NCBI GenBank assembly: GCA_041082215.1
Contig: JBDOIF010000050.1
Span: 1 to 52,257 of the forward strand
DNA: 52,257 bases
Reading direction: 5' to 3'
DNA from: Anaerolineae bacterium
Lineage (GTDB): Bacteria > Chloroflexota > Anaerolineae > B4-G1 > DUEL01
Below the pieces are notes generated by a model, which did not search any database, was not told the DNA's origin, and saw nothing but the letters and a program-made list of their open reading frames with translations. Shown piece after piece: positions 3 to 12,357 of this stretch (positions are counted from its first letter, which is position 1; every line of letters starts with the position of its first letter). Both the position numbers and the translations under genes were made by a program.

Positions 3-1091
3 TACTCCAGCCCCCAGCGCAAAGCCATAGCGCCAGACGGGGTGGGGGAGATCGCCGTCGGGGTTCTGATAGCGGGGACGGACATCGGTCAGGTTGCCCC
101 AGGGGCCGGGGCCGACGGCGCGGACCAGGCTTCCCTCCGCCACCAGCCAGAGGCGCTGGCGCCGCTGGGCCGCCCCCTCCCACGTCCGCAGCCACCCCGC
201 CACGGCGATCAGCGCGTAGCCTGGGGAGCCGGTCAGCGCGGCGGGGAGTTCCGCCTCGCGCGGGTGGTAGCGGGAGAGAAGCCACACCAGGCCGCCATCG
301 GTCGGGTCGGGCAGGGTCAGGTGCTCCTCCTCCGGCGGCCACCTGAATCCACCATAGCCGACAGTCCTCTCCCCGCCCAGGCCGTCGTCCGCCAGGACCG
401 CCAGCGCCTGCAGGAAGAGGCCCTGCAGAGAGGCGCCGTTGCTTCGCCACTGGACGCCGAACCAGAGGCCGCAGCCGGGGGCGAAGGAGACCCGCCCGGC
501 ATGGTAGATGTTGGAGGCGGAGGTGATGCGGTCCAGCGTCACGCGCGGGAGCTGGTGGGCCTGGAAAACATGGTGGTAGCGCAGGGCGTGCAGGCGCTTC
601 GGGCGAACCCGCATTTCCACCGGAAGTCCCCCCGTTTCCTCCACTGTAAGCCAGAAGGCCCCGCCCTGGAGCGCCACGCCCCGTGTCGGTTCATTCTTTT
701 CCTTCTCCGCAAAGAGCCAGTCGTCCATCCGCTCCCCGTCCACCATTCGCCGGAAGAGCGCCTCGGAGACGAACTTCACCCTTTTCAGGTCCTTGGAGCG
801 CTCGCGGAGCGTCTCCGGGCCGAACCAGCGGTCCAGCGGGACCGGCATCGGGAAGAAGCGGACGCTTCCGGCGAAGGGGAAGGCGGAAGTCAGGAGGAAA
901 GGCGGGTTGCCATCGGCAAAGGGTTCCGCGAGGACTTCCCCACTGCCCGAAAGGCGAAGGGCGGCGTCCACCAGAGCGGCAAAGAGCGTGTCGGAGGGGA
1001 TGTGCTCTGCGCTCTCCTCCAGGTCCACGCCGCGCGCGCCCAGGTGGAAGCCGCCGCGAAAGGTGAGGCGGTAGACGGTCAGTTCGGCCAT
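3..1091 (-). CDS. csm4: Type III-A CRISPR RAMP protein Csm4 (3' end cut by window edge)
   Basis: Not in the ORF track because no stop falls inside the window. Read manually from ATG 1091 (RBS AGGAGG): MAELTVYRLTFRGGFHLGARGVDLEESAEHIPSDTLFAAL..., ending ...HPVWRYGFALGAGV at the edge. H..G, SDTLF.AL and C-terminal HPV.RYG are typical Csm4 motifs, and it lies directly after csm3. Confidence 0.92.
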   Translation of the reverse strand, partial: MAELTVYRLTFRGGFHLGARGVDLEESAEHIPSDTLFAALVDAALRLSGSGEVLAEPFADGNPPFLLTSAFPFAGSVRFFPMPVPLDRWFGPETLRERSKDLKRVKFVSEALFRRMVDGERMDDWLFAEKEKNEPTRGVALQGGAFWLTVEETGGLPVEMRVRPKRLHALRYHHVFQAHQLPRVTLDRITSASNIYHAGRVSFAPGCGLWFGVQWRSNGASLQGLFLQALAVLADDGLGGERTVGYGGFRWPPEEEHLTLPDPTDGGLVWLLSRYHPREAELPAALTGSPGYALIAVAGWLRTWEGAAQRRQRLWLVAEGSLVRAVGPGPWGNLTDVRPRYQNPDGDLPHPVWRYGFALGAGV

Positions 1092-1104: not shown

Positions 1105-1926
1105 TCACGCCAGTTCCAGGACGCCCTTCACCTTCCGGAGCAGGTTGTCCAGGTCGTTCACCAGAGCGGGGAGATCCGCGTACGCGCCGATTTCTTGGGG
1201 CGTTTCCAGATACTTTCCACCGGGGCGCACGGAGACTTTAATCTCCTGGAGTTTGACCTTGCCGGAGCCGCGGGAGCCCAGGCCGCCCAGGTAGTCGTCC
1301 TCCAGGAGCTGGAGGCCCTCCACCAGGGTGCGGAGCCGCTCCACGTCCTTCTTCGGGTCGGCGATGGGGGCATTGCCGTCCTTCCCCTCGTAGACGGAGT
1401 AGACCAGTTCGGCGGGGCCGAAGACGGCGCCAGCGGGCACCCGCTCCATCCGGCGGGGGTTGGCGGCGGAGGTGACCCGGTCAATGGAGACCTCGGTCTT
1501 GACCTCTGTGTAGGGGAGGTCGGTGTGGGCCTGCTGGGTCAGGATTTGGTGGCTCTTCTCGGTGAGGTGGACATCCCGCACCACCAGCCGGGTGGGGGTG
1601 GCGAAATCCACCTCGCCGGGGACGCCGAAGACCTGGCAGACATCGCAGGTGGGGTACACCTCCGGCCTGTCGCAGGAATGGATGGCAGTGCCGCCGATGT
1701 TGCGGTTCAGGGGCAAGCCCCGGTACTTCTCAAGCAGGGAGCGGACCTTGCCCTTGAGGGAGGAGCCGGGGATGTAGGGGCGGTTGGTGATGGGGTCGCG
1801 GATAACGACCTTGTCCACCCCGCCGATCTCGATGCCGGTCTCCGAACCACCGATGTGCAGGCCAGTGACGGCCTCAATGTCAAAGGTCAGGAAAACGCGG
1901 CCTTTGAGTTGGATTTTCTTGGACAT
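1105..1926 (-). CDS. csm3: Type III-A CRISPR backbone RAMP Csm3 (Cas7)
   Basis: TGLHIGG, IGGVDK with the catalytic Asp, PYIPGSSLKGKVR, ERVPAG, and G-rich loop LGGLGSRGSG. Confidence 0.96.
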   Translation of the reverse strand: MSKKIQLKGRVFLTFDIEAVTGLHIGGSETGIEIGGVDKVVIRDPITNRPYIPGSSLKGKVRSLLEKYRGLPLNRNIGGTAIHSCDRPEVYPTCDVCQVFGVPGEVDFATPTRLVVRDVHLTEKSHQILTQQAHTDLPYTEVKTEVSIDRVTSAANPRRMERVPAGAVFGPAELVYSVYEGKDGNAPIADPKKDVERLRTLVEGLQLLEDDYLGGLGSRGSGKVKLQEIKVSVRPGGKYLETPQEIGAYADLPALVNDLDNLLRKVKGVLELA

Positions 1927-1973: not shown

Positions 1974-2426
1974 CTACTGCCCGCCGTAGGCCTTGTGGTA
2001 GGCCAGGATGGCCTCGAAGAACTCAGCGAAGCGCTGGAAGTTGTCGTCCTGGTTGTTCCCACTCCCAGGCGACTGGTCCTTCGGGCGGGGCTGGGCTTTG
2101 ATGACGTAATCCAGCGCGGGGTCCAGGACAGCGACCAGTTCTTCCACAGCCTTGCCGCGCTCCTTGCGGGCGCGGTAGGCCATCTTGGGCCGAAGGAGGA
2201 CCAGGCGGCGGAAGGCGCGCTGGCGGTTGATGCTCCAGTCGGCCTGAATCTGGCGCACTTCGCCGAAGAGGGCGCGGATCTGGTTGGTGGTGAGGCCCAT
2301 ATCCTTCAGGGACTTTCCCAGCCGGTCGGCCCAATGAACCAGTTTCTCCGCACCGCCCGGGTCGGTGATGATAACTTTCAGATCATCACCGCTCGGGCGC
2401 TGGAAAGTCTGTTGCTGTTGAGCCAT
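1974..2426 (-). CDS. csm2: Type III-A small subunit Csm2 (Cas11)
   Basis: LTTNQIRALF, LRPKMAY and C-terminal FFEAILAYHKAYGG motifs; lies between cas10 and csm3. Confidence 0.95.
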   Translation of the reverse strand: MAQQQQTFQRPSGDDLKVIITDPGGAEKLVHWADRLGKSLKDMGLTTNQIRALFGEVRQIQADWSINRQRAFRRLVLLRPKMAYRARKERGKAVEELVAVLDPALDYVIKAQPRPKDQSPGSGNNQDDNFQRFAEFFEAILAYHKAYGGQ

Positions 2427-2534: not shown

Positions 2535-5096
<2,562 letters not shown>

Positions 5097-5109
5097 ACTA
5101 TCCCTCCGT

Positions 5110-5127
5110 CGAACTGCGTAAGTCCTG
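5110..5127 (-). repeat. 18-bp motif CAGGACTTACGCAGTTCG, copy 1 (possible IS/MITE end)
   Basis: Exact reverse-complement match to 43298-43315. Confidence 0.7.
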
Positions 5128-5132
5128 AGGAC

Positions 5133-5179
5133 AAAAAAGGGCGGAGCCGAAAAAAAGCCTCCGGCCTGCCGCCCCGCCC
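5133..5179 (-). terminator. Terminator-like hairpin in the cas10 leader
   Basis: Minus strand GGGCGG(CA)GGCCGGAGG...CGGCTCCGCCC followed by TTTTTT. Confidence 0.6.
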
Positions 5180-5218
5180 GTTCATCTGTTCCCCTCTACA
5201 GTTTCCTGCTCGCCCTCT

Positions 5219-5248
5219 ATTCTACCCTCTCCCCTCCCCTCCCGTCAA
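5219..5248 (-). promoter_or_regulatory. Sigma70-type promoter for the csm operon
   Basis: TTGACG (5243-5248) -N18- TAGAAT (5219-5224) on the minus strand. Confidence 0.75.
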
Positions 5249-5286
5249 TAGAAAATTTCCCTATTTTCTTTCAGAGATTTCTCCGA
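5247..5286. promoter_or_regulatory. Two imperfect palindromes adjoining the -35 box (candidate operators)
   Basis: AATAGAAAATTTCCCTATT (5247-5265, 7 of 9 pairs) and TCAGAGATTTCTCCGA (5271-5286, 6 of 8 pairs). Centres are about 22 bp apart. Confidence 0.5.
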
Positions 5287-5310
5287 TGCCTCCCCTCTCC
5301 CAATAGGATA

Positions 5311-6213
5311 TCATGTACCCGGTGCAATTTCCAGCGGCTCGCGGAAGGCCAGCCAGGGGCCGAAATGCTCCCGCAGCCAGTGATAGGTGATACGAGCATC
5401 TTCCGCCAGACCCCACACCACACGACACTCGGCCAGAATCTGGGTCTTGTGGGCATCCAGGGTCTTGAGGGTGATCCCCAACCGCTCGGCCGCCTCCTGG
5501 GGCATCAGCCCCACCGCCAGCACCTCCAGCACCTCCCGCTGGCGGTCGGTGAGCCGCCCCCAGACCATCGCACAGCGGATTCTTTCATCAGGGTGGAGGA
5601 GAAACGGCAGGCGGCCGTCCGGACGGGCCAGCGCCCGCAACGCCGGGAAGTAGGCCCCCCAGGGGACCAGCGGGACGGGGATCAGAAGCACGCCCGCCTC
5701 CGGCGGCGCATGGAGGATGGCTCCGTCCCGCGCCTGCTCCAGGAACTCAGGAGGCGTGTAGAGGTGCCACAGCCGATCCCGATGGTCGCACTGCAACATC
5801 GCCGCCGTGGTCAGGGTGAGCGCCAGAATGCGCGGCCCGCCAGCTATACAGAGATGAAGCCGACCACGCTCCCGCTTCAACGTCGCCAGCAGGTCCCGCG
5901 CCATCTCCCATACCCCCTCCGCCTCCTCCGCAGTGCGGATGGCGGAAAGCGGACGGCCCTGCACCTGCACGACCAGGCGGTGAAATGCCACGGGCCGACC
6001 GCGATACCGCCCACCCGCAAACTCACGGCTCAACTGGGAGAGGGCACGCTGTACACGCGCATCGTCCGGGGACAGGTGGAGGACGACAACCGTCTCTACG
6101 GCCTCGCCACGCGCCAGCAAACCGTCCAGCGCAAAGGTGACCACCTGGGCCTGACCGCCCATCGTGATCAGAGCGGTGACGCCCTCACGTTCCAGCACTC
6201 CGTTCTCCATCAT
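5311..6213 (-). CDS. CRISPR-associated CARF protein (Csx14/NE0113-like) fused to a C-terminal LuxR/GerE-type HTH
   Basis: N-terminal Rossmann-like ALITMGGQAQVVTFALD and LHLCIAGGPRIL (CARF motif II-like). C-terminal LTDRQREVLEVLAVGLMPQEAAERLGITLKTLDAHKTQI is a LuxR-type HTH. Confidence 0.82.
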   Translation of the reverse strand: MMENGVLEREGVTALITMGGQAQVVTFALDGLLARGEAVETVVVLHLSPDDARVQRALSQLSREFAGGRYRGRPVAFHRLVVQVQGRPLSAIRTAEEAEGVWEMARDLLATLKRERGRLHLCIAGGPRILALTLTTAAMLQCDHRDRLWHLYTPPEFLEQARDGAILHAPPEAGVLLIPVPLVPWGAYFPALRALARPDGRLPFLLHPDERIRCAMVWGRLTDRQREVLEVLAVGLMPQEAAERLGITLKTLDAHKTQILAECRVVWGLAEDARITYHWLREHFGPWLAFREPLEIAPGT

Positions 6214-6228
6214 CGCGCAAGGTAAATA

Positions 6229-6257
6229 AGTATATGAAAAACGGCTCAGAAAGTCAA
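6229..6257 (-). promoter_or_regulatory. Sigma70 promoter for the CARF-LuxR gene, overlapping the start of the divergent gene
   Basis: TTGACT (6252-6257) -N17- TATACT (6229-6234). Predicted leader is only about 9 nt. Confidence 0.75.
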
Positions 6258-7529
6258 ACGCTCTTCAACCCTCTTCCCGCCGTCGCCATCGGCGGGCCGC
6301 CCCACAGCGGTAAGTCGGTGCTGGCCTACAGCCTGACCCAGACGCTGCGCGAAATGGAGGTCCCCCATTACCTGCTCCGCGCCTACCCACCCGACTACGA
6401 AGGGGACTGGTTCCACGAAGGGGACCAGGAGCTGGTGCGCCACCTGCGGATCAAAGGGAGCGCCACCGACGACTGGGTCGCCTCCCTGCGGCGGGATGTG
6501 GCCCGACGCCACCTCCCCCTCCTGGTGGATATGGGCGGCCTGCCCACGCCGGAGCAGGAATCCATCCTGGACTGTTGCACCCACGGGGTGCTCCTCACCC
6601 CCACCGAGACAGCCCGGGAAGAATGGGCGGAGCGGTTCGCCCGCCACGGCCTGGTGCTCCTGGCCGATCTTCGCTCCGATCTTCACGGAGAAAACCGGCT
6701 CGAACGGACAGAGCCGGTCCTCGAAGGGACGCTGAAAGGGCTGGAACGGGGTTCCCGGGCAGATGGCCCTGCCTTCGAGGCCCTCGTCGCCCGGCTGGCC
6801 GATCTTTTCCGCGCCGCCTCCCACGGCCTCCGCCGCCGCCACCTGGAGAGCGCCCCCATCGAGCTGGTGGTGGACCTGGACCGGCTGGCCCGGTCATTGG
6901 GCAGGGACCCTATCCGCTGGCAGCCTGAGGAGCTGCCGACGGTGCTCGATCATCTGCCCCCGGGAGAACCGCTGGCCCTCTACGGACGGGGACCGAACTG
7001 GCTCTACGCTGCCACCGCCGCCCACACGCTGCCAGCCCCCTTCTGGCTCTTCGACGCCCGGCTGGGCTGGGTGGAAGCGCCCGCTATCCGCTGCGGCCCC
7101 TCCCCCGCCCTGAACTCACTCGTCCTGCTTGAAGTCAGCGCACTGGATGCCTGGATGCTGAGCTTCTTCCTCCCCAGCGCCTATCTGGACATCACGGACG
7201 CGGACAGGCTGGCCGTCCCCCCTCCGCTGAAACGGGGCACCATCCTGAGCGGCAAGCTCCCCCTCTGGCTCTGGGCCGCCCTGGCCCGCTCGCTGGAGGC
7301 CCCCTGGGTGGCCGTCACGCAGCCCCAGCTCCCGGGTGCAGTGGTGGTGCGGAGCCCAGGCGGACAGCCAGCCGTGGGCACCGTCATCCCTCTACCGGGC
7401 TTTGCCCACCCTCTTCCCCACACCGCCTCGCCTGCCCCATCCCCACCGTCGTCTGATATCCCACGCCAGCGTAGAAGGCGTAGTCGGCCAGCAGGTGGAT
7501 CAGGCTCAGCCAGTACCGGTCCCGGTTGA
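6234..7529 (+). CDS. P-loop ATPase fused to two Csx3 (Crn3 ring nuclease)-like domains
   Basis: Walker A GPPHSGKS and Walker B-like LLVDMGG. Csx3-like motifs LYGRGPNWLYAATAAH...FDARLG and ILSGKLPLWLWAAL...WVAVTQPQLPGAVVVRS. Confidence 0.82.
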   Translation: MKNGSESQTLFNPLPAVAIGGPPHSGKSVLAYSLTQTLREMEVPHYLLRAYPPDYEGDWFHEGDQELVRHLRIKGSATDDWVASLRRDVARRHLPLLVDMGGLPTPEQESILDCCTHGVLLTPTETAREEWAERFARHGLVLLADLRSDLHGENRLERTEPVLEGTLKGLERGSRADGPAFEALVARLADLFRAASHGLRRRHLESAPIELVVDLDRLARSLGRDPIRWQPEELPTVLDHLPPGEPLALYGRGPNWLYAATAAHTLPAPFWLFDARLGWVEAPAIRCGPSPALNSLVLLEVSALDAWMLSFFLPSAYLDITDADRLAVPPPLKRGTILSGKLPLWLWAALARSLEAPWVAVTQPQLPGAVVVRSPGGQPAVGTVIPLPGFAHPLPHTASPAPSPPSSDIPRQRRRRSRPAGGSGSASTGPG

Positions 7530-8229
7530 GGACCGCGTACCGGCACCGGCCCACAAAGCCGATCTGAACCGACTCCCCTTTCCCCGCAACAGCCTGCGTC
7601 GAAAGCCGGTACCGGCTGATGGCCAGGCACTCTGCGGCAAACCGCCGCACCTCCTCGGAGACGGTAACCGGCGCGAAGCTGTTCCACTTCTCCACCAGGC
7701 TGCTGAAGACCAGATCGGGCAGCGGCACGGGAAGGGTCCGTCCGCCGGACCGGAAGGCGGTGGGGGAGGCAAACTCCAGCTCCACCCGTGAGGCCAGTGG
7801 CCCACCGGGCAGTAAACGCCTGGAGGCCAGCTCCTCGTAAGAGGTCCGCCCCGCCCAGGGATGGTCGGCGGGGTCCAGCGTGGCCTGCCGAACCGCCAGC
7901 GGATTTCCCTCTATCTCGATGTGGTGGGGGGGCCTCTCTGCCATCCGCTCCAGTTGACGGGACATCTCCTCGCTCAGCCCCGTATACCGGAGAAAGGCGG
8001 ATTCGCCCGGCTCCAGCACCAGGCTCTGCCCCCGACGGCGGCCACCCCAGAGGGTTGAACAGGTGAAGGGACGGCGCTCATCGGGGGCGTGAAGCCGCTC
8101 GGCCAGGCCCCGATCCTCCTCGGCGACGAACCGCAGCAGCGCCCCGTGGCTGGCCCGGCCCAGGAAAGGGGGCAGAGATAGAGGTTGCTTCGCCTCCAGT
8201 GTCAGTACCAAGCTAGTGAGTGCAGTCAT
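7384..8229 (-). CDS. cas6: CRISPR endoribonuclease Cas6
   Basis: RPFTCS, FASPTAF, GFVG, and the C-terminal G-loop GVGYQTTVGMG. Confidence 0.95.
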   Translation of the reverse strand: MTALTSLVLTLEAKQPLSLPPFLGRASHGALLRFVAEEDRGLAERLHAPDERRPFTCSTLWGGRRRGQSLVLEPGESAFLRYTGLSEEMSRQLERMAERPPHHIEIEGNPLAVRQATLDPADHPWAGRTSYEELASRRLLPGGPLASRVELEFASPTAFRSGGRTLPVPLPDLVFSSLVEKWNSFAPVTVSEEVRRFAAECLAISRYRLSTQAVAGKGESVQIGFVGRCRYAVLNRDRYWLSLIHLLADYAFYAGVGYQTTVGMGQARRCGEEGGQSPVEG

Positions 8230-9666: not shown

Positions 9667-12357
9667 CTACTTCGCCTCCAGGGAGAGGAGCTTCTTCGCC
9701 CACGCCTTCAGGTCGTCGTAGGCTGCCGCCACCGGATCAACGCCGGTGCTCACGCCGATCCCCCAACCAAAAGCCCCCAGGTACTCCTCAAAAGAGCCAA
9801 AGGTGAGGCCGAAGACCTGCCTGGCGACCATCCCGCCGATGAGCGCCACCAGCCCGGCCGCCAGCCGACGGTTGAAGTTGTGGCGCCGCTTGTCCCGATA
9901 GACCGCCTGCAGGCCGGATGGGCCGATGAGGAACTCCCGGGAAACCTCCACCGGCTCCCCCTGTGGGGGCTTCACCACCGCCCTCACCTCCCACCTGCCC
10001 TCCTTCTGGAACTCGGCCGTCGCAGTGAGGGGGTCTTCCCCCACCCTGAGGATCGGCCCCTCCCAGGCGACATCCGTACCCTGCGGGGGAGGCCCTCCTC
10101 GCCGCACGATCCTGAGCGGGATGCTCTCCCGAACACGGTAGCGGACCGATCCGAAAGGCACTTCGATCTCATATTCCGGCCGGGCCGGCAACTCCACCTC
10201 ACGCTCGACAAAGAGGCTAACCAGCCTCCCTTTCACCTGCGGGAACTCCTGCTGCAACCGTCCCCTCACCCCGTCCGCCTTGATCCACGCCTCCTCAAAC
10301 TTCCCATTGTCCAGCAGTTGCTCCGCCTCCTGAAGGAGCGCCTTCAGGGCTTCCAGCAACTGCTTCTTCTGGTCATCGGCCGGCTGTGAGAGCGCCACCT
10401 TTACCTCGTCCTGAAGGGATGCGATGAGGCGACGGAGTGCGCTCTGCACCTGCCCGACGGCACCCTCCAGGTCTCCCTGGCTAAGGGCACGATGGGCTCC
10501 CTCAAACGCTTTATCCCCCTTCTCTTCACGGATGCGGACGAGGGCCCTGCCCAATTGCTCATACGTCGTCAACCGGGTCCCTACCTCTTTCACCGCATCG
10601 GTCACTTCCTCGATCCCCCACTCGATCTCCTCTTCGAGCAGGCGAAGGACGTAATCCAGATCGAATCGGACCCGGCTGTAGATCGGGTTGACAGAGCCCT
10701 GTTGAGAATAGCCGTAAGGGTCGCGGGGCAGGTAGTCGTCCCATTGTTGCCAGGCCTTTTCGATCTCCCGGCGCTTCTCCGGTCGTTTTCCTGCCAGCTC
10801 CTGCTGATACTTCACCCATCCGCCCAGAACGACCCCCAGCAGGATGACGAGGACCGGCCAGAGGATGAAATCGTGTACGGTGGCCTGGACGGGGACCGTC
10901 ACCACGCCTGCGGCGATGTCGGGCGACTGGATCAGGAGGTAACCGCGATAGGCGCCCGGCCGGGTAAGGCCCACAGCTCCGACCGATACCTCCACCGCCT
11001 CCCCCCGGCCGATCTCGAACCGGACCGGCTGGTCGCTGCCGTTGAGCCGGAGCTCTCCCCCGGCGCCCATCGGGCCAGCCATCTGCCCCGGCAATACGGC
11101 CACATCCCGCACCGGCCCGCGTCCCTGGACCTCCCAGATTTGCAGCGTCCGTTCGCCGACGCGGCCCAGTCCGGCGCCGGACCCGCCGGCCAGGAGCACC
11201 ACCAGCGCACCGGCCACCCCGCCCGCCGCGACAGCCGCGATCCACGGCCAGTTTCGGCCCAGCCAGCGGCCATCTCCCCGCGCCCCCGGCACGGCCAGCG
11301 CCCACACCGTATAGCCCACCAGGACAACCACCGCGACAAAGGCCAGCAGCGCGCCGGCCACTACCGGCCACACCTTTCCAGCGGCGGCGGAGCCAGGTAG
11401 CCAGCGGACCCCGCTGAGCTGGAGCGCCGTCGTCAGCGGCAGTGAGGGGGTGAGCGCAGGGGAACCCCCCAGCTCGCCATACGCGATCTGGTAGACCCCC
11501 CGGGGCTGATCCGGCACGATCAGAGTGAACGGAGTCGAGATGGCCCCGGCGTTGGCTGCGCTCAACCGCAGGGCCCCCTCATAGGTCCCCGGCGCAAGCA
11601 GACGGTCGGCGTCGAACTCCAGCAGCAATTCGGCGACGACGCCCTCTGTCAGTGTGGGAGGAGGGGTGATGGTAAGGAAGGTGGAGGTATCCAGCGAACC
11701 GGTCACCTCCCCCTTCGGGCGCAACGCGGCCAGCTCTGCCCGGACCCCCTCAGCATCCCCGTAACGGGCCACAACTCGAACGGCGGCCCATCCGTGACCC
11801 GGGCCGATCTCATAGGTGAAGTCTTCCTGTGCCCATTCCAGCTCCACAGGCCAGCGGGAGGCCACAAGGACAAGGGGCAGGGTCAGCGGCTCAACCCCAT
11901 CCGCTGAGAAGTGGAGGGTGACCGTCATCGTCCCTTCCGGCATCTCCCCCCCGGCCAGGGAGAGGGAGAAGGCTCCCACCCCACCGCCGTCCACGACACG
12001 CCCGGCCGGTGACAGGCCCAACACCGCCGGGACGACGGGCTGGCCAGCCCCGGTGGGCCCCTCCAGCCGGGCTACTACGGTAACAGGGGAAGTCGTCGGG
12101 TTGTGGACGCGAAGGGTGCAGCTCCACTGCCGATCAGACAGGACAAAGCGGCAGGCCGGCGGCGTGGAGAGAAGCTCACCGGCGGAGCCGACGAGGGTCA
12201 GGGTAGGGCTTAACGGCACAGCGGGGAGGTCGAGGGGGCTTTCCAGAGCAGGGGAAGCCGGGGAAAGGGCGGTAACCTCCGTGGCGGCGCCCATCATCCA
12301 CCAGAACCCTGCCACAGCCAGGATGCCCATAGAACAGGCCAGCACAGCTTTCTTCAT
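9667..12357 (-). CDS. Large hypothetical membrane protein with Ig-like repeats
   Basis: 896 aa with RBS AGGAGG and an N-terminal signal/TM segment. Repeated PGxYxGxL beta-sandwich-like motifs, several TM helices and a charged helical region. Confidence 0.8.
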   Translation of the reverse strand: MKKAVLACSMGILAVAGFWWMMGAATEVTALSPASPALESPLDLPAVPLSPTLTLVGSAGELLSTPPACRFVLSDRQWSCTLRVHNPTTSPVTVVARLEGPTGAGQPVVPAVLGLSPAGRVVDGGGVGAFSLSLAGGEMPEGTMTVTLHFSADGVEPLTLPLVLVASRWPVELEWAQEDFTYEIGPGHGWAAVRVVARYGDAEGVRAELAALRPKGEVTGSLDTSTFLTITPPPTLTEGVVAELLLEFDADRLLAPGTYEGALRLSAANAGAISTPFTLIVPDQPRGVYQIAYGELGGSPALTPSLPLTTALQLSGVRWLPGSAAAGKVWPVVAGALLAFVAVVVLVGYTVWALAVPGARGDGRWLGRNWPWIAAVAAGGVAGALVVLLAGGSGAGLGRVGERTLQIWEVQGRGPVRDVAVLPGQMAGPMGAGGELRLNGSDQPVRFEIGRGEAVEVSVGAVGLTRPGAYRGYLLIQSPDIAAGVVTVPVQATVHDFILWPVLVILLGVVLGGWVKYQQELAGKRPEKRREIEKAWQQWDDYLPRDPYGYSQQGSVNPIYSRVRFDLDYVLRLLEEEIEWGIEEVTDAVKEVGTRLTTYEQLGRALVRIREEKGDKAFEGAHRALSQGDLEGAVGQVQSALRRLIASLQDEVKVALSQPADDQKKQLLEALKALLQEAEQLLDNGKFEEAWIKADGVRGRLQQEFPQVKGRLVSLFVEREVELPARPEYEIEVPFGSVRYRVRESIPLRIVRRGGPPPQGTDVAWEGPILRVGEDPLTATAEFQKEGRWEVRAVVKPPQGEPVEVSREFLIGPSGLQAVYRDKRRHNFNRRLAAGLVALIGGMVARQVFGLTFGSFEEYLGAFGWGIGVSTGVDPVAAAYDDLKAWAKKLLSLEAK

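Follow-up and report, generated by a model that had tools for sequence, protein, structure and literature searches.

We analysed a CRISPR–Cas locus of type III-A from an Anaerolineae bacterium (Chloroflexota) in which a predicted regulator that joins a CARF domain to a LuxR-type helix-turn-helix (HTH) is encoded next to the cas10 promoter. The window, meaning the whole stretch of 52,257 nucleotides (nt) under analysis, is one complete contig (JBDOIF010000050.1) of a 174-contig, 3.53-Mb assembly (GCA_041082215.1; 3,531,556 bases). Its minus strand carries, in order, cas6 (8229–7384), the regulator gene (6213–5311), a 214-nt intergenic region, cas10/csm1 (5096–2535), csm2, csm3 and csm4, and a divergent plus-strand gene (6234–7529) sits between cas6 and the regulator gene. 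A first-pass annotation had proposed that the regulator senses cyclic oligoadenylate (cOA) and feeds back on csm transcription. The features that bear on this proposal are listed below, with lengths in amino acids (aa) for proteins.

6234–7529, plus strand: fusion of a P-loop nucleoside triphosphatase (NTPase) to Csx3, 431 aa; Walker A at residues 20–28; Pfam Cas_csx3, E 1.6e-15.
6229–6257, minus strand: promoter of the CARF–LuxR gene, TTGACT-N17-TATACT; 10 of 12 consensus matches.
5311–6213, minus strand: CARF–LuxR regulator, 300 aa; Pfam and NCBIfam matches, AlphaFold2 model and structural superposition.
5626–6180, minus strand: CARF domain, about residues 12–196, within the regulator gene.
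5341–5592, minus strand: LuxR/GerE HTH, about residues 208–291, within the regulator gene.
5270–5287, no strand: predicted distal operator (op1), a canonical 18-bp site centred at about −66.5; 26.4–26.9 bits.
5248–5264, no strand: predicted proximal operator (op2) in the family register, degenerate, centred at about −44; 5.9 bits.
5219–5248, minus strand: cas10 promoter, with −35 box TTGACG (5248–5243), 18-nt spacer and −10 box TAGAAT (5224–5219); promoter scan.
5133–5182, minus strand: terminator-like hairpin (5182–5139) and T6 run (5138–5133) in the cas10 leader; repeat and fold scan.
2535–5096, minus strand: cas10/csm1, 853 aa; TIGR02578, 650 bits; HD at residues 18–19 and GGDD at residues 630–633 (nt 3198–3209).

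The first-pass annotation had placed a CARF–LuxR HTH gene directly upstream of the cas10 promoter, and profile searches and an AlphaFold2 model of 5311–6213 recovered both halves, a Cas_NE0113/Csx14-like CARF domain and a GerE domain. Residues 23–196 matched Pfam Cas_NE0113 (PF09623; E 3.8e-31, 108.9 bits, cut-off 23), and the protein also matched Pfam GerE (PF00196; E 1.4e-07, 31.5 bits, cut-off 23.5). It fell far below the cut-offs of the NCBIfam Csx14 and Csa3 models; the Csa3 model (TIGR01884) scored 16.2 bits against a cut-off of 60.2 and covered only CARF residues 105–144. The AlphaFold2 model, made with 43 homologues as input, had a predicted local distance difference test score (pLDDT) of 88.1. 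Its residues 9–204 superposed on cOA-binding CARF domains in VIA-align and have their Rossmann-like fold. The top structural match was Cad1-CARF (Z 18.1, root-mean-square deviation (rmsd) 2.5, 166 residues), and Sso2081 and Sis0455 (Z 16.2–16.4) and Csa3 (Z 12.8–13.2) also matched. Four helices (residues 208–220, 223–233, 238–245 and 249–267) make up a GerE-type tetrahelical HTH, and the family profile matched the DNA-binding domains of LiaR, VraR and NarL (E 8e-10 to 1e-06). These matches uphold the earlier view that the HTH is of the LuxR/NarL type, unlike the winged HTH of Csa3. The regulator gene is single-copy in the genome.

The CARF motifs bear on whether the protein destroys its ligand. 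It might be mainly a Crn1-like ring nuclease that clears cOA, with an HTH that merely autoregulates or tethers it; some cluster members are so named by NCBI, Csx14 is predicted to be such an enzyme and is grouped with Crn1 (PMC8284326, PMC12409355), and the Crn1-type protein Sis0811 also has an HTH (PMC9638899). In CARF ring nucleases, however, the GxS/T motif (motif I) is reported to be catalytic and a Lys/Arg of motif II to bind cOA (PMC8844856), and the regulator carries an unusual GGQxQ instead of GxS/T. The G-T-S11 of Sso2081 aligned with G-G-Q21 of the regulator, and Q21 is nearly invariant (at least 90%) among 43 family members; the absence of the Crn1 catalytic Ser/Thr rests on the motif register, from a weak profile alignment (E 0.03), together with a strong fold match. 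In motif II, GGRK106 of Sso2081 aligned with GG-x-R128, and G125, G126 and R128 are invariant in the family alignment. Cleavage by the CARF domain, which the first-pass annotation had allowed alongside binding, is therefore doubtful because Gln stands at the position of the Crn1 catalytic Ser, and from its residues the domain looks able to bind a ligand but not to cleave it in the manner of Crn1. We regard a mainly nucleolytic role as quite unlikely, and the placement of the operators described below also counts against it.

The cas10 promoter named in the first-pass annotation, TTGACG-N18-TAGAAT, held up: it has 10 of 12 consensus matches, with five of six in the −35 box, and the region 4800–6600 contained two promoter-like sites against a mean of 0.3 in shuffles. 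Judged from this promoter, cas10 transcription would start near 5212 and leave a leader of 116 nt. The two palindromes that had been noticed near the −35 box are both present, one an imperfect 18-bp palindrome at 5270–5287 and the other a perfect 7-N6-7 inverted repeat (5250–5256/5263–5269) that abuts the −35 box. The centres of this pair lie 19 bp apart; in the register conserved across the family, by contrast, the proximal site occupies 5248–5264, has its centre 22.5 bp from that of the distal site, overlaps the first base of the −35 box and is degenerate. With weight matrices that excluded the window, the distal site scored 26.4–26.9 bits and was the best position in the 3,531,556-base genome, the second-best scoring 18.3–20.7 bits. 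With 5.9–6.0 bits, the proximal site counts as degenerate within the family; its counterpart in one related locus (L002) is similar and just as degenerate, and the window site has a spacer one base longer. Nine genome positions matched at 14 bits or more, and only the cas10 site among them had a positive-scoring neighbour 22–23 bp away (6.0 bits, at −23). We considered a wider regulon in this genome and rejected it, since none of the other matches has such a partner.

Between the cas10 promoter and the ribosome-binding site, the leader contains a GC-rich hairpin (arms 5171–5182 and 5136–5147) followed by a T6 run, which resembles an intrinsic terminator or attenuator. Its folding energy did not differ from that of shuffles (z −0.53), no Rfam match was found in 5000–5400 at E ≤ 1, and the hairpin is not conserved in the loci of relatives. 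On these three grounds we rejected it as a known RNA element.

We collected related loci from several sources. A scan of species-representative genomes gave 37 loci, all from Chloroflexota; a profile-based scan found relatives of the regulator in 217 genomes, of which the best 80 were kept; a metagenome scan gave 393 relatives, 80 of which were kept; and a protein search listed 534 relatives at E ≤ 0.001. The full set comprised 177 loci, 128 of them unique, and 71 with a score of at least 14 in the operator finder described below.

When the intergenic regions were aligned, a pair of 18-bp palindromes emerged, their outer half-sites being ATCAGAG and CTCTGAT. In ATCAGAG-type loci, a matrix built without the tested locus placed its top matches in the intergenic region downstream of the regulator. 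There were 109 matches of at least 18 bits in 548 kb of loci, and 102 of them fell between −60 and +300 of the regulator stop codon, a zone that makes up 6.6% of that sequence; two others lay in the divergent region and five elsewhere. Two of the last five come from one locus (L008), where they lie ahead of a RAMP gene that belongs to a second type III operon. There, a full second twin operator with a −10 box (753–803, minus strand) stands before the RAMP gene, beyond the P-loop–Csx3 gene, and one regulator may serve two type III operons in that genome.

A finder that uses no motif gave the same picture of twin sites. It looks for two palindromes 22–23 bp apart with a TAnnnT hexamer 20–24 nt further on; a version without the −10 constraint chose GC-rich hairpins in several loci, and the constrained version was used instead. 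Of 85 unique regions, 51 scored at least 14, compared with 1 of 255 shuffles and none of 85 coding controls. Conservation of the palindromes in orthologous loci, singled out beforehand as a point on which the proposal could fall, was thus found, and at a fixed distance from the −10 box. In the 71 unique loci, the two sites were spaced by 22 bp (58 loci) or 23 bp (13 loci), and 21 nt (54 loci), 20 nt (10 loci) or 22 nt (7 loci) separated the −10 box from the proximal site. The finder accepts only gaps of 20–24 nt; a separate scan of offsets from 8 to 35 nt placed the best −10 box at the equivalent gap in 22 of 25 loci. Setting the −10 box at −12 to −7 puts the proximal site at −51 to −34, with its centre at −42.5, and the centre of the distal site at −64.5. 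Base identity within the half-sites is conserved (1.2–1.8 bits per position), and mismatches between the arms are common.

The predicted recognition helix of the regulator varies together with these half-sites. In most members it reads ITLKT-L/V-D-x-HK, the variable residue being D253 in the window protein. ATTGGAA-type half-sites accompanied a TVKTVHA helix in 6 of 6 rows and the D-type helix in 0 of 62; there were also single cases of a Tyr variant with ATCACCG and of an Arg-containing variant with ATCAGCG. On a maximum-likelihood tree of 79 proteins, the pairing of TVKTVHA with ATTGGAA needed three changes (bootstrap 5–95% range, 3–4), and none of 200 bootstrap trees allowed a single change. 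In the alignment, this variable position corresponds to the Lys of the KTVKTH recognition helices of LiaR and VraR; the equivalent residue of NarL, Lys188, presumably contacts bases. A conserved twin palindrome at a fixed distance from the promoter, combined with the covariation of the helix, argues for binding by the predicted regulator, and from these sequence patterns we consider it highly probable that the regulator binds the predicted sites.

The same data speak to the idea that the palindromes are RNA hairpins, such as terminators or processing signals, or are bound by an unrelated host factor. They do lie just 3′ of the regulator stop codon, and in a few loci (L004, L032 and L035) a T-run falls between them. 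Yet base identity rather than mere pairing is conserved, the arms are often mismatched, the distance to the −10 box is fixed, the second copy in L008 precedes a different operon, encoded on the opposite strand, the window genome has a single such site, and the site changes together with the adjacent HTH helix. We judge this explanation very improbable.

The position of the sites suggests how they might act. The lux box of LuxR is reported to lie 42.5 nt upstream of the start site (PMC7585371), and because the proximal centre of the family also lies near −42.5, we read the arrangement as that of class II activation. The −35 boxes of the family promoters matched the consensus at a mean of 3.2 of 6 positions in 25 loci, with at most two matches in 12 of 25 and at most three in 18 of 25. 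Alternatively, the same protein and operators could form a repressor, in which a pair of apo dimers occludes the −35 region and holds the type III operon at a low level until cOA, or its decay, brings release, or in which cOA strengthens repression and so provides negative feedback that limits toxicity. In keeping with repression, the proximal site overlaps the −35 box where there is one, including in the window, where TTGACG starts at the last base of the site; the window promoter, with its 10 of 12 consensus matches, might need no activation; and Csa3b offers a precedent, with tighter binding in the presence of a cyclic tetra-adenylate (cA4) analogue (PMC8844856). Most family promoters, however, have no usable −35 box, and the distance from operator to −10 box is held to within ±1 nt, as is usual for activators that have to contact RNA polymerase, whereas occlusion would not require it. 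Repression is the main rival, one that we take seriously but doubt, and we lean slightly towards activation as the mode of control.

The regulator appears to be expressed independently of these operators in most loci. Its own promoter, TTGACT-N17-TATACT (6257–6229, minus strand), covers the ATG of the divergent P-loop–Csx3 gene, the start codons of the two genes being 20 nt apart. Of 131 unique related loci, 35 have a promoter with at least 10 of 12 matches in the equivalent position, most of them without an operator there. The sensor is therefore probably made constitutively, from a near-consensus promoter that mostly lacks an operator. We rejected autoregulation through an operator in the divergent region as a general feature, since only two of the 109 strong matches lie there, one each in L015 and L019. 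This placement of the operators before the type III operon and not before the regulator's own gene, with 2 of 109 matches of at least 18 bits in the divergent region, is the further point against a ring nuclease whose HTH merely autoregulates it. In L015 (at about 1871) and L019 (at about 3976), the strong match stands 25–26 nt before the regulator start and only one site lies downstream; this arrangement may be an autoregulated variant.

The first-pass annotation had assigned removal of the signal to the divergent ATPase–Csx3 protein, and this part of it did not survive. The AlphaFold2 model of the partner had a pLDDT of 81.7. Its C-terminal part has the Csx3 fold: residues 318–385 matched Pfam Cas_csx3 (PF09620; E 1.6e-15, 57.2 bits), and Foldseek aligned this part with AfCsx3 (3wzg, 3wzi and 6yud) at target-normalised TM-scores (TMt) of 0.75–0.80 and rmsd 2.1–2.4 over about 97–99 columns. 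In AfCsx3, residues S44, G45, R46, I49 and R71 are reported to contact cA4; H57, H60, D69, R71 and H80 are described as conserved and required for activity, and the H60A mutant as forming fibres with cA4 (PMC7371418). All five of the latter residues, which are those of the ring nuclease Crn3, are replaced in the window partner: a phmmer alignment placed R352, L354 or a gap, Q363, Q365 and P375 at the positions of H57, H60, D69, R71 and H80. In an alignment of 34 members, 28 have Gln in place of D69 and 26 have Gln in place of R71, and the three His positions show no conserved His. The S-G-basic motif that contacts cA4 is kept, with Ser in 28, Gly in 33 and Lys or Arg in 32 of the 34. A role as signal remover is disfavoured because the Csx3 domain lacks the Crn3 catalytic residues, and the domain is predicted to bind cA4 without cleaving it. 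By their residues, the CARF–LuxR protein and its partner both look like sensors and not like signal removers.

The N-terminal domain of the partner resembles a SIMIBI-type P-loop fold in the model, with CTP synthase N-domain, MeaB, GPN-loop GTPases, FtsY and MinD as its Foldseek neighbours (E 6e-05 to 1e-03). No AAA+ chain was among the Foldseek matches listed for this domain, and no ATPase family in Pfam or NCBIfam matched it. The partner open reading frame (ORF) runs 146 nt into cas6 on the opposite strand (7384–7529). Residues 391–431 have pLDDT below 50, and relatives are about 370–425 aa long; the C-terminal tail is probably unstructured or non-functional.

Taken together, we propose that the regulator is a cOA-sensing, LuxR-like class II activator that exerts positive feedback on the type III operon, a reading that we favour by a modest degree. 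In this scheme, a dimeric CARF domain would sense cyclic oligoadenylate made by Cas10, with cA4 as the best guess, and a pair of dimers would occupy the twin palindromes of 18 bp (half-site ATCAGAG) from one face of the DNA, at about −42.5 and −64.5 in the type III effector promoters of the family and at about −44 and −66.5 in the cas10 promoter of the window. cOA formed upon infection would then raise synthesis of the Csm complex and so close a positive feedback loop. The partner, with its catalytically dead Csx3 domain, would be a second cA4-binding component and might serve as a buffer, timer or effector, not as a ring nuclease. Both a source and another target of cOA are present, in the GGDD of Cas10 and in a TM1812/DxTHG CARF gene of the same genome.

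The identity of the ligand is a separate matter. The sites could regulate the operon while the CARF domain senses another nucleotide or RNA ends, or only dimerises; the unusual GGQxQ in motif I in place of GxS/T would fit such a departure. Against it, the gene occurs only at type III loci with a Cas10 that retains GGDD, its nearest structural relatives (Cad1-CARF, Sso2081 and Sis0455) all bind cA4 or cyclic hexa-adenylate (cA6), the basic residue of motif II is invariant, and the obligate partner carries Csx3, a cA4-binding fold. We hold a different ligand, or none, to be fairly unlikely, and the motifs and genomic context make a response to cOA made by Cas10 a reasonably probable property of the regulator.

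Several observations weigh against the activator proposal. In the window itself, the proximal operator scores 5.9 bits and is degenerate, the promoter may fire without an activator given its good −35 box (5 of 6), and a site that overlaps the −35 box also fits repression; the hairpin and T-run in the inferred leader hint at an extra layer of control or a different start. More generally, divergent CARF domains such as that of RtcR are reported to respond to other signals (PMC7790460, PMC4012209), the assignment of Gln to the position of the catalytic Ser depends on a weak sequence alignment to Sso2081 (E 0.03), and all loci derive from assemblies of uncultured genomes or metagenomes. The covariation could also partly reflect physical linkage, because about 100 bp separate the operator from the HTH-coding end and one recombination tract could carry both. 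The window is a clear member of the family, but its promoter may be less dependent on the regulator than those of most other members.

To whatever degree the promoters depend on it, the gene pair recurs in front of diverse type III operons. The P-loop–Csx3 gene lies divergently upstream of the regulator in 108 of 116 loci (not deduplicated) and on the same strand in two; the remaining six have no upstream sequence. Of the genome loci, 20 had sufficient flanking sequence to show what follows the regulator: Cas10, Cmr1 or Cas6 comes first in 15 of them, and in three more a Cas10-like gene follows one gene further on. The first downstream ORF in 54 metagenome loci (not deduplicated) was Cas10/Csm1/Cmr2 in 29, Cmr1 in 4 and Cas6 in 7 (40 of 54); in the rest it was another CARF protein (2), a weak match to a MADS3-like ATPase (1) or an ORF with no family at E ≤ 1e-6 (11). 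By Csm1, Cmr1–3 and Csx10 models, III-A, III-B and III-D operons all occur behind the cassette, and of 58 unique loci that have at least 2.4 kb of downstream flank, 35 show a GGDD-type motif. A broader reading, which we put forward only tentatively, is that of a portable sense-and-amplify cassette, in which a cOA-binding CARF–LuxR activator, working from the twin operator at −42.5 and −64.5, would serve III-A, III-B and III-D operons and the dead-Csx3 NTPase would act as a second cA4 receptor. By analogy with dead AfCsx3, the partner might polymerise on cA4 and thereby buffer, time or relay the signal.

All but two of the best 80 of the 217 genomes from the profile-based scan are labelled Chloroflexota. 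One exception, L191, is a 3.1-kb contig in a Paracoccaceae bin that carries the cassette at 63% identity, and it is probably a binning error rather than a gene transfer. Short tandem repeats with units of about 7–12 nt flank the cassette in many loci; they lie just downstream of the regulator stop codon in L006, L008, L009, L014 and L016, and in the divergent region in L050, L057, L058, L155 and L169.

The operon in the window is of type III-A (Csm), with matches to the models of Csm1, Csm2, Csm3 and Csm4, and its Cas10 keeps GGDD at residues 630–633, as the first-pass annotation had stated. The remaining Cas genes of the window are as follows.

7384–8229, minus strand: cas6, 281 aa; Pfam CRISPR_Cas6, E 5.6e-20; TIGR01877, E 3.9e-16.
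1974–2426, minus strand: csm2; Pfam Csm2_III-A, E 3.4e-29.
1105–1926, minus strand: csm3; TIGR02582, E 3e-66.
3–1091, minus strand: csm4, cut by the contig end; TIGR01903, E 2.6e-53.

A 2.5-kb contig of the same genome (C38) carries csm5 and the TM1812/DxTHG CARF gene. The latter follows csm5 (1134–2483, locus L038), matches TIGR02221 (cas_TM1812, E 8e-35) and a DxTHG motif model, has no Pfam family match and is cut by the contig end; from these matches, it is likely a cOA-activated effector of the system. A search of the window for a CRISPR array found none. The rest of the window holds housekeeping genes, and an 896-aa ORF (9667–12357, minus strand) had no match in Pfam or NCBIfam.

Csa3 is archaeal and acts mainly on type I genes, and to our knowledge the regulation of type III effector operons is largely unknown. 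The present family has members in at least 217 species-representative genomes and provides an example from bacteria whose predicted operator is sharply defined. It also offers a predicted mode of control, a natural switch of specificity, between a D-type helix with ATCAGAG and an H-type helix with ATTGGAA, and a clear hypothesis of feedback. If the tentative reading as a sense-and-amplify cassette is true, the second messenger that type III immunity produces would be able to induce that immunity in Chloroflexota, and Csx3 would have been taken over for sensing alone. The family also exposes a problem of database labels: members are named 'CRISPR-associated ring nuclease' (NCBI) or 'histidine kinase', and the Csx3 domain of the partner would pass for a ring nuclease despite its missing catalytic residues.

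In a search of the literature we found no description of a CARF–LuxR fusion with a defined twin operator, although the bare architecture may already be catalogued, and none of the class II geometry, the placement before III-A, III-B and III-D operons or the pairing with a dead-Csx3 NTPase. NE0113-family CARF proteins were predicted in 2014 to regulate transcription (PMC4012209). The novelty that we claim is that of the operator, the promoter geometry and the pairing and not a first sighting of the fusion, and the principle of a CARF domain joined to a DNA-binding domain is already known from Csa3.

Csa3, a Sulfolobales protein with CARF and winged HTH domains found mainly at type I-A loci, is reported to bind cA4 without cleaving it and to take part in cross-talk with type III systems (PMC8844856, PMC8699464, PMC9704534), and one of these sources describes it as the sole experimentally characterised CARF transcription factor (PMC9704534). 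The regulator shares with it an N-terminal CARF domain, a C-terminal DNA-binding domain and palindromes in cas promoters (PMC8844856, PMC8699464, PMC9704534), and the CARF folds match (Z 12.8–13.2). It differs in that its HTH is a tetrahelical LuxR/GerE domain and not a winged helix, its host is bacterial (Chloroflexota), its predicted target is the type III effector operon itself, and it is strictly paired with a P-loop–Csx3 gene. The ring nucleases of the Crn1/Csx14 group (Sso2081, Sis0455 and Sis0811) are close in that PF09623 is the best CARF family, the fold matches at Z of about 16 and the GG-x-basic of motif II is kept, but the regulator has Gln at the S11 position, a length of 300 aa and a LuxR HTH. 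Proteins of this length fall outside a ring-nuclease survey because the survey, as described, applied a cut-off of 250 aa (PMC12409355).

Like LuxR, TraR and NarL, the regulator has a GerE HTH and a predicted N-terminal ligand sensor, and its predicted sites recall the dyad-symmetric sites of 18–20 bp in that family, with a proximal centre about 42.5 nt upstream of the start site and overlap with the −35 region (PMC7585371). Its sensor, however, is a CARF domain and not an acyl-homoserine-lactone-binding or receiver domain, and its predicted sites are twin, 22–23 bp apart. The partner shares the Csx3 fold and the S-G-basic cA4-contact motif with Crn3/Csx3 but lacks H57, H60, D69, R71 and H80. 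Earlier work already describes Csx3 fused to an ATPase, in cyanobacterial Csx3-AAA proteins (PMC12409355, PMC8284326); in the partner the NTPase precedes Csx3, whereas the review places Crn3 at the N terminus, and the NTPase resembles SIMIBI-class P-loop proteins. Finally, CalpL–CalpT–CalpS and RtcR likewise wire a CARF or SAVED sensor to transcription, CalpL being described as releasing a sigma factor when triggered by cA4 and RtcR as a CARF-containing sigma-54 activator. In contrast to both, the regulator described here has its sensor and its DNA-binding domain in a single polypeptide and is associated with a promoter of the sigma-70 type.

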